Shown: positions 57,001-63,000 of the stretch, in pieces
Position numbering within the stretch: the stretch's first letter is position 1
Layout of the letters: each line of letters begins with the position of its first letter
Source of the DNA: Planctomycetota bacterium
GTDB taxonomy: Bacteria; Planctomycetota; Phycisphaerae; WQYP01
Length of the DNA stretch: 64,000 nucleotides
Assembly: GCA_021808485.1 (NCBI GenBank)
Contig: JAKBBN010000001.1
Location: forward strand, 18,799 to 82,798
Reading direction: 5' to 3'
Program-made: the position numbers

Positions 57001-60000
57001 CCGCCAGCACCGCTGATTATGATGGAACAGCGCATCCGGATTGCGGCCGATGTGGTCATGGCTGATCACCAGCCGGGAATCCGCGACATATTTTCCCGCG
57101 GCCTTTACGACGGCGGTGAATTCGTTGTCGCAGAAAAACGACCGGTAGGCCGGATGATACACATAGCCGAAGCGGCGGAATAAATTCCAGCCCATGACGC
57201 TGAGGGTTATCAGGGAATGACCGGGGCGATAGCCGTCGGCAAAATGCAGGGCGCCGTCCATGGCCGGAAAAGCCTGAGCCATCCGCTGCGCGAAAATGTC
57301 GTCCCAGCCGTGCATTCGCGGCTGCATGTCATCGCTGGCCAGCACCAGCATATCCGGCGGGCCGTCGCCGAATCCAAAATCCCCATCCGGCGGCAGATCC
57401 GCGTTGCAGGCCTCCACCTTGGTTCTCCCGGCCGGCCCCACGGCAAATGTCACATCCGGCATCCGCGCCAGCATGCCCATCACCCAGGGCGCGGTCATGG
57501 CTGAATCATCCTGATCAATACTTATCAGGAAGCGCACGCAATGGCGGCCGGAAAGGGTTTTTCGCCAGCGCATGAATGTGGATAAAAAAAGGAAAGGCCG
57601 ACTGCGCGTCGGCCATTTGACCAGAATATTCATGCCACTTTTCCTTGAATTGCGGTTCGGTTGCGTTGATCGCCGGCGCCGGAGCGACCCGCCGGTTTAA
57701 TCCGGCGCGCCGGCCTGAAGTTGAAGCGTGGAGCCGGCGGTTGATCCGGCCCATACCTGCAACTGTGCGACACCTTCCATATCCACCAGCAGCTGGAAAT
57801 TCGTTCCCGCCGGGACCGGAAAACTGTAGCCCAGCGTTTCAGGCTGCTGGCTGGTGGCGGTGGAAAAATCGGTGCCGCTTTTCCACGTGACCATCACGCC
57901 GCCCAGCACACTGGCCCGCGTGATGTAAAAGGTATCCAGGCGTCCGGTGTTTCCCACGCTGAAGGTCAGCAGCAGTTTCCCGCGCCGCGATGGATACTGC
58001 AGATCAAAACAGACCTGCGGCACATTGCCCGCCGGAATATTTTGTGCGGCGGGCGTGAAGGTGAGAAAATCCGCCGCACCGTCAAAACTCAATTCTGTCG
58101 CCGTCATGATGAGGTCCTGTCTAAAATAGCGATATCCGGCACACAACTTCTTCCGCGGGCGGCGTCAGCCGGTCGCAAAGGTGCCGGTGCTTAACGCGGT
58201 TGTGCCGCTGGTGGAAAACACGCCCGTGGATGAACCCGTGCTGCCGCCGCCGAACGCCTCGGAAATGAGGGCGTCCACCGTGCGATAACCCCAGTAGTCG
58301 TAGCCCTGGCGAATCAAATGCGCATCGCTTTGGTAGTCGTAATATCCCTTGGACTGCAGCAACATCGCCGAAGATTCAAATCCGCCCGGAGTCGCCTGGC
58401 TCCCGCGGATTACCGCGAGATTGGAAAATGAATCGGCGAGGCTCATGGCGGCGAGTTCATAGGCCACGAGCTGCTGGTAGCTCTGGCCCTCCCAGATCAA
58501 ATTGTCCGAAAGGCGTGAGAGCGCCGGATGGTACGGGCCGATGATGAAGAAAAGATTCGAGAGCGAATAGCCGGCCGCGGCCCATGCCTCCTGCACGGCG
58601 AAGATGATCGCGGTCAGATTGTCGGCAAATCCCGCCGGTGTGTTGGATGGCTGGGGAATCGGCCCGACCGAGTTGGTCGTATCATTAAAATCATTGCCGC
58701 CGTGAATAATCTGGAAGCAGACCATGGGCGCAGCGCCGTTCTGGAGCCGCACAAGCTGCCGCAGAAACTCCGTCTTGGCGGTTGCGGTGGTATTCTGCCA
58801 CGCCAGCGCCGCATTACGCGCATCCTGTCCGCCCTGGTACAGGTTCGTGGTATAGGCGATTCCCGTCAGCACGCCCGGCGCCTGCACCCGCTGGTAGGAC
58901 AGCAGAACAGGCCCCTTCACGCCGTAGGCCAACGTGTTTCCACCGGCAAAATTGCACGGCGAACAGGTGATGGTGCCGTAGGCGCCGTTGGAATTCCGTG
59001 CCGCCGCGGGAATGATAAGATTTCCATCCTGCATGCCGTAGGCCGCGCCGTTGCTGCTTACCTTGGTTGTGGCGTATTGCGTGTTCTGCGCCGCGGTCTG
59101 GTACGCGGTCGGGTTCCAGTAACCGCCGCCGGTAAAAATCCCTTGCGTCCATTCCCAGGATAATTCCTGTGTTAGGTCCATGGGGCAGGCATGAATGATT
59201 TTACCGTTGTTGGTGATGTTGCCCGCAGCCAAAGGCAACTGGCAGCCCTGCAGCGTGTTGGCGCAGATAATGTTTGTCTGCTGGCCGGTAATGGCGCCGC
59301 CGGCAGGCAGAAACTGGTAACACTGGCCGAAAAACGCGGCCTCGGAAACGCCGTCATTGGCCATGTAGGCGTCAATCGCGGCAATGCCGGTCGCGGTTCC
59401 GAGCACAGCCGGCGACGGCCAGAGGTATGAGCCGGAGGATCCGGAGCCTTGTCCCTCGGAAATGCCGCCCGTGCCCAGGAGGCCGGTGGAATACATGCCG
59501 AAGCGGGCGGCGAAGGCGTTACGCATGCCCGCATTGTGGCCGCCCAGCGTGTCCTTGACCGTGTTGGAATCGCTCATCAGCGCCAAATCCACACGGCGGG
59601 TCAATGCCGCCTGCAAAAACGGTAATACCGCCTGCGGCTTGTAACACATGGAAAGATTGGTTGAACCAGCGGAAGAAGTCATGGTAAGTTCCTTTCAAAA
59701 CCGATGCAATTCCGATAAGTCAATGACGACCGACCGGGCCGATGCAAACGCCCGGGCGTCAGCTGTGCGTGCCGCCGCCGGTGAGCTTTTTAATTTCCGC
59801 AAGCAGATTGCCGACAGCCTTGCGCACATCCGCGGTCAGTGTGGAAAAATCCTCGACCGCGGCGGCGTGATATGATTTGTGCTCCGCGAGGGCCTGGACA
59901 GCCAGAACCGCCGCAACTCCGCCGCAGAATCCGGCGCCGAAACTGAGAATACATGATAACATAATACAAACTCCAAAAAACGTCAGGACAACAGGTTCAG

Positions 60001-63000
60001 GCGACAATTCCCGGGATCAACGATTGTCCCGGCGGCCATTTAAGCGTGTACCGTGCCATGCGCGGCCCGCGCAAGACTGAATATCCATTCCAGCGGGTTG
60101 AACCCGACGCCGAAAATGGCCGAAAGCAGAAAATCCCCCACCACCACCAGCAAGCCCAGCCCGATGATCCACGCGATGAGTTTTCTGGTCTTTCCGCCCA
60201 GCCAGGCATTCTGATAGCTCTCTTCCGCCGTATCCCGCTGGTGCCGCGCACGCTGTTGACCGGCAAGAGCGGCGGCCGCGGCGGCTTTGGCGGCCCGTGC
60301 GCTGTTTTCCAGCAGGCCCAGGGCGCGGTTATTTTCCGCGGCTTGCCGGGCCAGCAGTTCCGCGCCGGCATCCGCGGCAACCAGCAGCGTGTGTTGTTTG
60401 TGCAGCACAACATGCAGCGGTGCAACCGCCGCCGGGGATGTGAATTGCACCAGCCCGGCCGCCAGGCGGCGGGCCCGGGTGTTCAGCGCGCCGGCGGTAT
60501 GAATGTCCGTACCCAGCGCGGTGACCTGCGGCATGATATCCGCGGTATGCACCACCGCCGGTGCGGATGAACCGCACCCCAGCAGCGTGAGGCAGTTGCC
60601 GAGCAGGGCGACGGCGGCCGCGGCATGCAGGGCGCGCCTGCGGGCCGCATGCGCGCCGCGGGACCGACCGGATAGTGTTTCAAGGCTTAATGTCATGGCT
60701 ATCTCCAATTCTGGATTTCCGAAATAGTTCCGCCGCAACCGGGCTTCAGATCATTCCACCGACCGGTCCGGCATCGCTCCGCGACAGCCGGCGCCTGCCG
60801 CGGGCGCCGCGGCCGGACCGCTGCAGCAGCACGGCCATGCCGCGTTCCAGGGTTTCCATACGGGTTAAAAACTGCTTCAGGGCGGCTTCCAGACTGCCCA
60901 GGCGGCGGGCATGGTCGCGCTGGGTCACTTTTTGCGTAATGACAAAACCGATCGCAGTCACCACGCTGCCGGCCAGGGCCAGGCAAAACCCACCGATAAC
61001 CGCCCATTGCACCAATGATTTCAGGAACAGGTCCGCCACGGACAAAAAATTCACCGACGGTGTCAACATTGCACAACTCCGGAATTACACGAACATGGCC
61101 CAAGGTTATGGCCGGCCTCCGGGACCGGCCGCAGGCGGCGATCAACGCCCGCCCGGGCCGGTCCATGCCCGGCAACGGCGCCGGGGCATCAACTCAGCGT
61201 GCCGCCACGCGCAGCAAGCGTTACAAATCCGCTGCGCAGATTGGCGCTGTTGGGCACCGTAAGCGGGGTGTTTCTGGCGGTTTTGCCGTCCACACGATAA
61301 ATGATGCGGTATGCGGTTTCCGCACTGTCAAAATAAAGATGCATGGACATGGCCGTCTCCACGCCGCCGCCGGCCTTGGTGGAAACAAAATACTGGTTCA
61401 GATCCGCGAGGATAACATCGCCCGGATTGCCCACGGGATAACAATGGTAGCTGTACACCACGGGCAGGCCGAACAGCCGGGCCTGCGGAGACTGCTGAAT
61501 GGTGCCGGCGGCAAAATAGAGGTTGCGGCCCGCGCCATCCTTCAATTGTTCAAACTGCGCCTCGGCATCCGGATGGGCCAGCCACAACACACCGGACATA
61601 TCACCTGGGCGCGGGGTCCACAAATGACTTTTCATATTCACCAGGTTGCTGTAGCTGATGGTGAAACCAGCCTGACCGGCATCGGCGGCGGCGGTAACCA
61701 GTGCCGGGGAATTCATGATTCCCTGCGGCTGTGCGGCCCCGGTGCCGGTGATAAAGGCCTGATTCAGGTCCCAAGCCAGGGCGATGCCGCCTTCATCCAG
61801 AATAAAATTGGAGAGCGCCACGTTGTTATCCGCCAGCAATTCATCGGTGACCGGCAGCATGGCGCCCCAGCGGTTCAGCGTCATCTGAACCCGGTTGTAC
61901 ACCGGTTTGGCCGGACCGATGGCCACGCCATCCGCATTGAGCCAGGTACCCAGCGAACCGCCGGCGGAATTGGTTACGCCCAGTTCGGAAATGCTGCGAA
62001 CCGGAATAAAAAGCGAATTGCCCACGCTGATCGGATATTTCCGGGCTTTGTCAAAAAGCACGGATTCGGCCAGTACGTCCCGGTACAACTGATCGGCATA
62101 TTCCGTGGGGACCAGGGCGCCGCCGTCGGCCAGGGCGGATTCATCCATGCCGTCGGCCTTGGTGATCATGCGTTTGAGGCGTTCATCGGTGGATTTGTGC
62201 GTGCAGTGCCGGCGGACCGCCTGGGCGAATTCGCCCAGCGATTTAAATCCGCCCGTCGGATCAAGCTCCGCGCGATCCGGGCCGATAACCAGGCTCGGCC
62301 GGATGCCCTTAAGTCCGCGGGAGACCTGATCAATCACCTGGTTGGTGATGCGCTGGGCGGCGGATTCGAGCTGCTGGTTCATGGCCTTGTGCATGACACC
62401 CAGCGCCTCCTCCAGATCGGCGGGGGTTGCGGCAACCGCTTCCGCCGTGCCCGTGTCAATTAACGGCTGGGCCTGCTGATCCGGCAGTTCCGCGATGGCG
62501 TCTTTCTTCTGACCCAGATAGTCATGGGTAAATTTAATCTTCATGTCGCGTCCTTTTTGGAAGTGAATGGTGATGACAACTCGCGGCACAATCCTGCGGC
62601 TCGCCGGGGTCGAACCCGCCACCGGCCGGACGGCATGTGATGCCGATAACAAGCTATAGCATCCAGCCGGTGCGATAACCGCCCGCAGGCGACAATCCGG
62701 CTATGGGCGGACAGGAATGAAGGACGCGGCTGTATGCACAACCGGCCGGGTTGATGGCGGGAACAATTTTCAGCGGATGTCGCGGCGGCAGGTGTGGGCG
62801 GCCATGCCGCACGATCCGGCAGCACTGCGGACAAGCGGCCTTTGCGGATTGCACCGGCAGTTGAAATGAGCCGGCGAAGCGGGCAGGCGGATAAGCCGGC
62901 CTGCCGATGCGCGAATGTCAGCGATTTTCATCGGCGATTTTGCGCGAGGCGCCGAATTGCGCCACGCGGTAGACCATGAAAACTCCAAGCCCCAGCAAAG

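Follow-up and report, generated by a model that had tools for sequence, protein, structure and literature searches.

A probably domesticated phage head-module fragment, with HK97-type capsid and glycosyltransferase genes, in Phycisphaerae chromosomes

The stretch of DNA analyzed here (the window; 64,000 nucleotides of a Planctomycetota bacterium of the Phycisphaerae lineage WQYP01, assembly GCA_021808485.1, contig JAKBBN010000001.1, positions 18,799 to 82,798) contains an operon on its minus strand (56314-62544) that codes for an HK97-type major capsid protein (MCP), three small envelope proteins, an SGNH-type esterase, a 136-aa protein, and a two-domain glycosyltransferase (GT). All seven genes are intact, and we consider with high confidence that the locus is a maintained, domesticated fragment of a phage head module. 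The fragment would come from a siphovirus-like lineage infecting Phycisphaerae and would now be inherited vertically; what the window retains is exactly the stretch of the head module that runs from the MCP to the GT, to which a tail-fiber-type SGNH esterase and its 136-aa partner have been added. As a whole, including the functional steps discussed in the last section, this explanation is the one we favor with moderate confidence, and most of that confidence belongs to the part that the comparisons show.

Conservation and inheritance of the operon

The MCP had already been recognized in an earlier reading of the same DNA without database searches (here, the sequence-only reading), and curated profiles confirm it, with matches to PF05065 (E 4.4e-36, 125 bits against a cut-off of 24.2), TIGR01554 (E 2e-44, 152 bits against a cut-off of 27.5), and phrog_10 (E 2e-36). 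By these profile criteria, the protein is an HK97-type MCP. Its start is the ATG at 62544 in all homologs, not an upstream TTG. The PF05065 core is preceded by ca. 140 residues, made up of a small domain and then a helical region that, by sequence, is delta or scaffold like, as the sequence-only reading had also proposed. These residues are conserved in phage-borne copies and in orphan copies that have no protease, and the N-terminal domain itself gave only subthreshold matches (DUF7302, phrog_2616, and phrog_829). At the cluster level, the MCP has ca. 38 relatives with identities of 53 to 99%, the named ones all labeled Phycisphaerae. Below this set, identity drops to less than 40% and the relatives are ordinary phage capsids, those at 37% identity being located in ordinary phages.

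No other part of a phage particle or packaging machinery is encoded near this gene. A 152-kb metagenomic contig with the exact MCP sequence (L001; related loci are designated by L numbers) extends the window by 8.5 kb past position 64000, and tblastn with the TerL, portal, protease, adaptor, and downstream proteins of relatives found none of them in the window or in L001 (72 kb). Tail genes and integrases were equally absent from the 64-kb window and the 8.5 kb beyond it. There is no tRNA in the window, and the only direct repeats resembling att sites are pairs of 16 to 21 nt, which is the level expected by chance. The locus has, then, neither the contiguous terminase, portal, protease, connectors, and tail of an intact prophage nor an integrase or an att/tRNA boundary. 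The description of a phage-derived orphan capsid lacking portal, protease, and terminase held in both sequences, and no prophage continues past position 64000, where the next genes are a defense-type helicase, an aldo-keto reductase, and a citrate synthase. Base composition shows no anomaly at the locus.

A scan of one genome per species yielded 30 loci in metagenome-assembled genomes (MAGs) of Phycisphaerae/Planctomycetota. The block from MCP to GT is present in ca. 25 of them, the rest being short or cut at a contig end. A portal or protease lies within 10 kb in just three (L035, L042, and L026), and 12 species-level loci for which 7 kb or more of upstream sequence is available lack portal, protease, and terminase alike. 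The orphan operons form at least five synteny groups with different host neighbors, which we verified by Pfam: ThiO and AraC in group A (the window, L041, and L047); PriA, RmlD, and a PMT-type GT in group B; an AcrB/MFP/OMF efflux operon with a shared membrane protein in groups C and F; and a prepilin-type protein, FolC, ComEC, a fucosidase, and SucC in group G. In all groups the limits of the retained block are constant, from the MCP start to the GT end, and the minimal forms, found in groups B and G, have no tail-related gene at all. In groups A, B, and D, the operon borders on defense genes. Prepilin-type (N_methyl) genes are found next to it in two groups, 5' of the MCP in L009/L033/L037/L040 and 3' of the GT in L030/L043/L045; genes of this type are very numerous in Planctomycetota, so the adjacency may be a coincidence. 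Two otherwise orphan operons have isolated, inverted TerL-like pieces at a distance of 7 to 10 kb (L020 4-351 and L027 18245-19402), which look like leftovers of an ancestral prophage.

The maintenance of the operon is apparent when the window is compared with L041, a locus of another species in which ThiO is 65% identical and the whole locus is syntenic. The dS values were 1.1 to 1.4 for the operon genes and 1.6 for ThiO, while the ratio of nonsynonymous to synonymous substitutions (dN/dS) was 0.06 for the MCP, 0.13 to 0.29 for the other operon genes (0.18 for the 107-aa, 0.29 for the 218-aa, 0.14 for the 67-aa, and 0.13 for the 136-aa protein), and 0.17 for ThiO. In seven further pairs, drawn from five synteny groups, dS in the operon is mostly similar to that in the flanking host genes, and dN/dS is 0.045 to 0.13 for the MCP, 0.10 to 0.16 for the GT, and 0.06 to 0.28 for the membrane proteins. 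Over all eight pairwise comparisons (dS 0.3 to 1.7), dN/dS is 0.05 to 0.13 for the MCP, the most constrained gene of the operon, and 0.10 to 0.17 for the GT. The identities of the operon proteins track those of the flanking PriA, AcrB, FolC, and ComEC. Purifying selection, host-like dS, and the conserved MCP N terminus together show a long vertical coinheritance with the chromosome and rule out neutral decay.

A neutral prophage remnant awaiting deletion, one of the origins that the sequence-only reading had suggested, would explain why no portal, terminase, protease, or tail genes surround the MCP, and the TerL-like pieces near L020 and L027 as well as the GTs of two relatives, which appear as split open reading frames (ORFs), agree with it. 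It is nevertheless largely refuted by the dN/dS values and the synteny, and we regard it as very improbable, as all seven genes are intact, dN/dS stays between 0.05 and 0.29 over the eight pairs at a host-like dS of 0.3 to 1.7, the block limits are constant in at least five chromosomal contexts, and there is no anomaly in base composition. A phage satellite with a capsid protein of its own that exploits a helper phage has even less probability, the lowest of the alternatives weighed here. Satellites do use homologs of the MCP, such as Ccm (PMC8569155), and there are related complete phages in the same MAGs. Against this, we found no integrase, replication initiator, primase, packaging genes, regulatory module, or att-like repeats of a PICI/P4-like element at the locus, which occupies a fixed chromosomal position, syntenic with ThiO across species, and diverges at the rate of its host. 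The suggestion that the element was a satellite or resembled a gene transfer agent (GTA) thus failed on its missing integrase, replication, packaging, and tail genes and on its fixed position. Ccm of SaPIbov5 is similar to the window protein in being an HK97-fold MCP homolog outside a phage, and it can coassemble with the capsid protein of a related phage (PMC8569155), but it is located on a mobile satellite with packaging functions, whereas the window operon is immobile and any interference by it is hypothetical.

The operon is part of a row of eight same-strand ORFs (56314-63643, minus strand) separated by gaps of 50 to 375 nt (Table 1). The sequence-only reading had placed all the genes that it described correctly, on the minus strand, and had left out the GT that closes the operon.

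Table 1. Genes of the capsid operon and its upstream neighbor in the window
Feature	Position	Strand	Evidence or remark
HK97-type MCP, 451 aa	61189-62544	-	PF05065, TIGR01554, phrog_10
107-aa membrane protein, N-terminal transmembrane (TM) helix and C-terminal coiled coil	60746-61069	-	Hydropathy
218-aa predicted lipoprotein, lipobox LLGC and C-terminal TM helix	60040-60696	-	Alignments, hydropathy, lipobox scan
67-aa single-pass membrane protein	59759-59962	-	Hydropathy
505-aa SGNH-type esterase, inserted beta-sandwich domain	58165-59682	-	Motifs, AlphaFold and Foldseek
136-aa soluble protein without family match	57697-58107	-	Conserved in relatives
439-aa GT, two GT-A-like halves, last operon gene	56314-57633	-	PF00535, PHROGs
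241-aa protein, disordered N terminus and two TM helices	62918-63643	-	Hydropathy; upstream neighbor of operon

The 241-aa protein is 68% identical and syntenic in L041, and it is kept within group A only, being absent from the other groups; because of this limited conservation, it is probably outside the operon core. Beyond its gene, L001 continues with an 81-aa fragment, a Schlafen-like helicase with a match to PDC-S41, a PADLOC candidate (E 5e-211), two small ORFs, the aldo-keto reductase, and the citrate synthase. The 81-aa fragment resembles the C terminus of a type III restriction enzyme. The stretch with the helicase and the fragment (L001 5173-8036) lies 0.5 to 3.4 kb past window position 64000, and in the contig of another strain an HNH_2 gene takes that upstream place (L003 298-618); the stretch is a strain-variable defense islet. 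On the other side, past the GT, there are ThiO, an AraC regulator, a 470-aa protein, a KDPG aldolase, and further host genes.

Regulatory sequences gave little. In scans for sigma-70 promoters and terminators, sites were no commoner than in shuffled sequence, and Rfam had no match between 54 and 64 kb in the window. GC-rich hairpins follow the MCP stop (61070-61188; L001 11357-11475) and the GT stop (56255-56313) and have a 16-nt motif in common, CCGGGCGGGCGTTRAT; the one after the MCP folds no more stably than its shuffles (z -1.0). At some distance from the operon, an ORF resembling an extracytoplasmic function sigma factor (35111-35857, plus strand; Sigma70_r2, E 8e-5) shows weak similarity (28%, E 8e-7) to a 257-aa gene from the tail-proximal region of the phage-like locus L006, a likeness that probably reflects a shared sigma-type domain and is unrelated to the capsid operon.

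Parent phages and the glycosyltransferase

Several relatives are phage like (L052, from IMG/VR; L059; L060; L006-8; L035/L050; and L042), and they have a common order of terminase, portal(-MuF), S78 protease, MCP, in some cases small membrane proteins, GT, head-tail adaptor (phrog_442), head closure (phrog_501 or Phage_HCP), and tail. L060, which also carries SSB and ParB, looks like a whole phage genome, and the proteins of group B have homologs in it. In two MAGs (JA4.bin8 and MAS4.bin39), an orphan operon coexists with a related prophage that is complete and has an MCP of 54 to 55% identity. L050 has two passengers that are unusual for a head module, an FGE-sulfatase/PEP-CTERM gene between portal and protease (7809-8798) and a sulfotransferase beside the GT (13945-15003).

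The GT is the most constant partner of the MCP. It matches PF00535 (25.5 bits against a cut-off of 23.3), phrog_14775 (E 1e-36), and phrog_8858 (E 1e-34), its N-terminal half matches phrog_14945, and an acidic DDDD motif at residues 299 to 302 aligns with the DDDD/DDDD-E of PglI and Che8 gp108, so that by its sequence the protein is assigned to the GT-A family 2 enzymes. Hydropathy indicates no membrane anchor. In essentially every related locus the GT is found 3' of the MCP, with one to five small genes between them, and the pairwise identities of the two proteins correlate strongly (r 0.87; Mantel 0/2000), which points to their coinheritance. In the phage-like L059, the GT, which is closest to the GTs of group G, comes directly after the MCP with no membrane proteins between them. 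For this reason the GT belongs to the core of the head module in the phage lineage, with the membrane proteins as an accessory insert.

The same arrangement is known from mycobacteriophages. In the gp13-gp21 region of Mycobacterium phage LittleE, a PF05065 MCP is followed directly by one or more GT genes and then by head-tail connector genes, and the Phycisphaerae phages L059 and L060 have this gene order. The C-terminal half of the window GT is 39.5% identical to LittleE gp15, which directly follows the LittleE MCP, and 34% identical to the GT domain of Che8 gp108 (E 1e-27), which belongs to the gp108-110 glycosylation cassette. Passages of PMC12363180, PMC11256854, and PMC11600133, citing Freeman 2023, state that mycobacteriophages glycosylate capsid and tail-tube proteins with such GTs. 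Compared with LittleE and Che8, the window has no terminase, portal, protease, connectors, or tail and is a stable chromosomal operon, its GT consists of two fused GT-A halves, membrane proteins lie between MCP and GT, and glycosylation of the MCP is putative.

One alternative keeps the particle: the MCP would build DNA-containing particles as part of a dispersed but functional phage-like element, either GTA like or a split prophage, the other genes of which lie elsewhere. Some relatives fit such a scheme. In L012/L026 (1-10000), the portal and the S78 protease lie 9 kb upstream of the MCP across an opposite-strand defense insert, which contains a ResIII helicase, a HEPN/nucleotidyltransferase pair, an N6/N4 methyltransferase, and an FRG protein, and L063 has a portal and a protease (1477-5651) with no MCP in the next 1.8 kb, so the junction of protease and MCP looks like an insertion hot spot. 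A search for what lies upstream of the portal of L013 gave no match in the Joint Genome Institute metagenomes by exact pattern and one short contig in a protease-based scan. GTAs are likewise inherited vertically under purifying selection, and the holin- or spanin-like genes and a tail-fiber-type enzyme have been kept here. However, the missing genes do not occur within 55 kb on one side and 10 kb on the other side of the window MCP, nor at the 12 species-level loci mentioned above; groups B and G are minimal forms with nothing related to a tail; and where a second, portal-bearing locus is present in the same MAG, it has its own MCP (L042 and L006). The alternative is, in our judgment, unlikely. 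GTAs of the RcGTA type are similar to the window locus in their phage structural genes, vertical inheritance, and purifying selection, but they have terminase, portal, protease, MCP, connectors, and tail in one cluster. Of these, the window has the MCP only, and no head-tail cluster with terminase and portal is present within 72 kb around it.

Envelope proteins and the SGNH esterase

The small proteins encoded between MCP and GT are conserved in architecture more than in sequence. The 107-aa protein is 53% identical to a 102-aa protein of L012, and a protein of ca. 100 aa with a TM helix and a coiled coil is present at this position in all orphan groups; by sequence features, its architecture is like that of an i-spanin or a holin. 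In alignments of clusters 6 and 9, the 218-aa protein shows an invariant lipobox Cys and, after a helical middle part, a C-terminal TM helix of high conservation, features that give it a predicted architecture like that of a u-spanin, and a homolog is present in the complete phage L060. The 67-aa protein is 51% identical to a 62-aa protein of L012. Sequences diverge, yet every group keeps the TM/coiled-coil protein and the lipoprotein between MCP and GT, and the likeness to the envelope-spanning components of lysis cassettes or of the type 10 secretion system (T10SS) is one of architecture only (a lipoprotein Cys with a TM helix, and a TM helix with a coiled coil). At that level, the holin- or spanin-like character given to the small proteins by the sequence-only reading was borne out by the TM helices, lipobox, and coiled coil. 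Together, the TM/coiled-coil protein and the lipoprotein/TM protein would form an envelope-spanning set of the spanin or holin kind.

The 505-aa protein has no match in Pfam, NCBIfam, PHROGs, or PDB sequences, a PDB profile search gave nothing meaningful, and one distant homolog matches Lipase_GDSL_2 at E 0.035. In an alignment of 15 sequences, the invariant residues D38-S39-N40, G328/N330/D331, and H455 correspond to SGNH blocks I, III, and V, although the Asp of block V is not invariant. The AlphaFold model built on this alignment reached a pTM of 0.75 and a mean pLDDT of 65 (a single-sequence attempt gave a pLDDT of 35). In Foldseek, it matched the peptidoglycan O-acetylesterase Ape1 (8gld, E 1.3e-8, and 4k3u, E 2e-8; probability 1.0) and viral proteins, minor-tail and tail-fiber proteins among them, with E values down to 1e-19. 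Because of the invariant SGNH motifs and these matches to Ape1 and to phage tail proteins, we assign it, on the basis of the predicted model, as an SGNH esterase with an Ape1-like fold and a beta-sandwich insert, of the kind that phages carry on their tails. The SGNH hydrolase with a Gly/Ser/Thr-rich part of the sequence-only reading is thus supported by motifs and fold, with no curated sequence profile matching it. There is no signal peptide, and the Gly/Ser/Thr-rich C-terminal tail is conserved among close homologs. Its distant homologs in Phycisphaerales (P0093-P0099; 31 to 35% identity) have signal peptides and GC-type dockerin tails and are secreted; the window copy has no such dockerin tail.

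The esterase is confined to group A. At its position, group D has a 678-aa hydrolase-like protein, a 138-aa homolog, and a pectate-lyase/endosialidase-like protein, an exchange that is the typical pattern of swappable receptor-binding enzymes. The 136-aa protein, which is 57% identical to a 138-aa protein of L012 and 76% identical to the L041 copy, is always paired with a large, variable enzyme gene; searches of Pfam, PHROG, NCBIfam, and PADLOC gave no family match for it.

These genes raise the question of whether selection acts on the envelope proteins and enzymes, with the MCP carried along, either for release of the esterase in the manner of a T10SS or for a surface modification by GT and esterase of the lysogenic-conversion type. 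The holin- and spanin-like architectures are kept in every group, the esterase has no signal peptide though its distant homologs are secreted, and domesticated lysis cassettes are known (PMC10847048 and PMC13284979). We hold this to be quite unlikely. The MCP is not a passenger, as it is under the strongest constraint in the operon (dN/dS 0.05 to 0.13); there is no muralytic endolysin, and profile searches of the operon found no lysozyme, transglycosylase, amidase, or endopeptidase; and the esterase is missing from most groups. The GT, for its part, has no membrane anchor and is a core head-module gene in phages even where there are no membrane proteins (L059). The T10SS is similar in having phage-derived membrane proteins of holin and spanin architecture in a nonphage context (PMC10847048 and PMC13284979), but the window has no muramidase or endopeptidase, its sole wall-related enzyme is the Ape1-like esterase of a single synteny group, and the core partners are MCP and GT.

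Possible function and relation to known capsid-derived systems

If the locus is a domesticated head-module fragment, the MCP most likely still self-assembles, as its constraint over the whole length, including the scaffold-like region, is what assembly interfaces impose and its protein clock is slow. With no portal and no protease, the products would be capsomers or unprocessed, portal-less shells resembling procapsids. The cytoplasmic two-domain GT would most likely modify the MCP or other operon products, the Gly/Ser/Thr-rich tail of the esterase being another candidate substrate. To judge from homology and constraint, the joint proposition that the MCP assembles and is the substrate of the GT is plausible, if somewhat short of probable.

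An encapsulin-like nanocompartment, in which a cytoplasmic MCP shell would enclose a cargo and the GT would be an accessory or cargo enzyme, is another fate for a retained capsid. It would agree with an orphan PF05065 shell gene under strong purifying selection, and Family 3 encapsulins are also PF05065 proteins among nonphage genes (PMC8346489). Yet we found no biosynthetic cluster and no cargo candidate with a targeting peptide, the MCP is constantly accompanied by membrane proteins and a GT, the scaffold-like N terminus is kept, unlike in encapsulins, and the layout of the block is identical to that of active phages, all of which leaves the nanocompartment with a small share of probability. 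The sequence-only reading, which had proposed it as a domesticated capsid fold, was right in the direction of domestication; with no cargo or encapsulin-type context found, the nanocompartment is only one option among several. The MCP matches PF05065 only, and the shell type of Family 1 or 2 encapsulins (PF04454 or SrpI) with adjacent cargo is not seen. Family 3 is the closest in that a PF05065 capsid is stranded among nonphage genes and apparently retained by the host, but its members belong to NRPS/PKS/sulfotransferase clusters of Actinobacteria, Proteobacteria, and Chloroflexi (PMC8346489), whereas the Planctomycetota locus has membrane proteins, esterase, GT, ThiO, and AraC as neighbors, no NRPS, PKS, SDR, or AmCP genes, biosynthetic cluster, or cargo candidate beside the MCP, and a scaffold-like N terminus that was kept. 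Satellite, GTA, and classical encapsulin were all rejected on gene content.

The benefit of the fragment to the host is the least certain step. It could be protection against related phages, by dominant-negative coassembly and/or by exclusion at the level of the envelope. Small prophage membrane proteins and GTs commonly mediate exclusion, and defense genes lie beside the operon in groups A, B, and D. A further argument is the analogy with Ccm of SaPIbov5, a capsid-protein homolog that redirects helper capsids (PMC8569155). We nonetheless give an anti-phage role a rather low probability, since a locus this stable and slowly evolving is more what one expects of a structural cellular function than of a typical defense gene. 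Less likely still is a metabolic function.

Some observations weigh against the explanation that we favor, or against parts of it. As to origin, values of dS above 1 are near saturation, so the ages of the loci are rough, although the pairs at dS 0.3 to 0.6 agree. In a neighbor-joining tree of the MCP, complete phages (P0028/L060, L050, and P0034/L059) interleave with the orphan groups; because of this and of the L059 GT being near group G, there may have been two or more origins of the orphan state, or phages and orphan loci may be exchanging alleles. In L047 (1-1700, corresponding to window 61189-62544 and upstream), identity to the window is 99% from ca. nucleotide 800 of the MCP onwards, while the 5' half of the MCP and 315 nt upstream are similar to L020 (group B) and the contig ends in a AAATCTCAAATTTCA-type tandem repeat; this reflects either recombination within the capsid gene or a chimeric assembly at the contig end. 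In one pair, L017/L019, dS of the MCP is 0.80, ca. twofold that of the flanking host genes and the GT (ca. 0.4), and hints at allele replacement in the capsid gene; this was seen in no other pair. The split GT ORFs, found in L016 and L022, may reflect sequencing error or decay. The orphan status covers the 72 kb around the MCP, and portal, terminase, or tail genes may be present elsewhere in the genome. As to function, the substrate of the GT is deduced solely from homology and gene position, and with the S78 protease missing, normal maturation is impossible, so that any shell would be atypical. No operon protein has a significant match in PADLOC, and among catalogued anti-phage systems only the neighboring helicase matches a model (PDC-S41). 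Finally, defense genes normally turn over fast, and the long syntenic stability and strong purifying selection seen here are unusual for them.

As a host-retained HK97 capsid gene, the locus stands out by its obligatory partners, a GT and membrane proteins, and by how widely it is spread in a bacterial class, and our literature searches found no description of a Phycisphaerae capsid/GT system. We put forward tentatively, from gene content and conservation, that a Phycisphaerae clade domesticated a capsid protein together with a dedicated GT and an envelope-spanning pair of membrane proteins, possibly repeatedly, and that glycosylated, portal-less shells serve the cell. Such shells might serve as decoys for related phages or interfere with them, or else be a compartment with a glycan coat or a particle for export. 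If true, this would establish a class of capsid-derived system in cells that is new and separate from both encapsulins and GTAs. Host capture of HK97-fold capsids is known from those two, and the locus would add a third pattern, in which a capsid gene is accompanied by a modifying GT and membrane partners but by neither packaging genes nor an evident cargo, and in which many uncultured Planctomycetota species conserve the set to the degree seen in housekeeping genes. As a set of four to seven genes, it bears on whether capsids can be retained for a cellular or anti-phage role, on the reduction of prophage head modules to a selectable core, and on whether capsid glycosylation, so far shown in actinobacteriophages, extends into other phyla.

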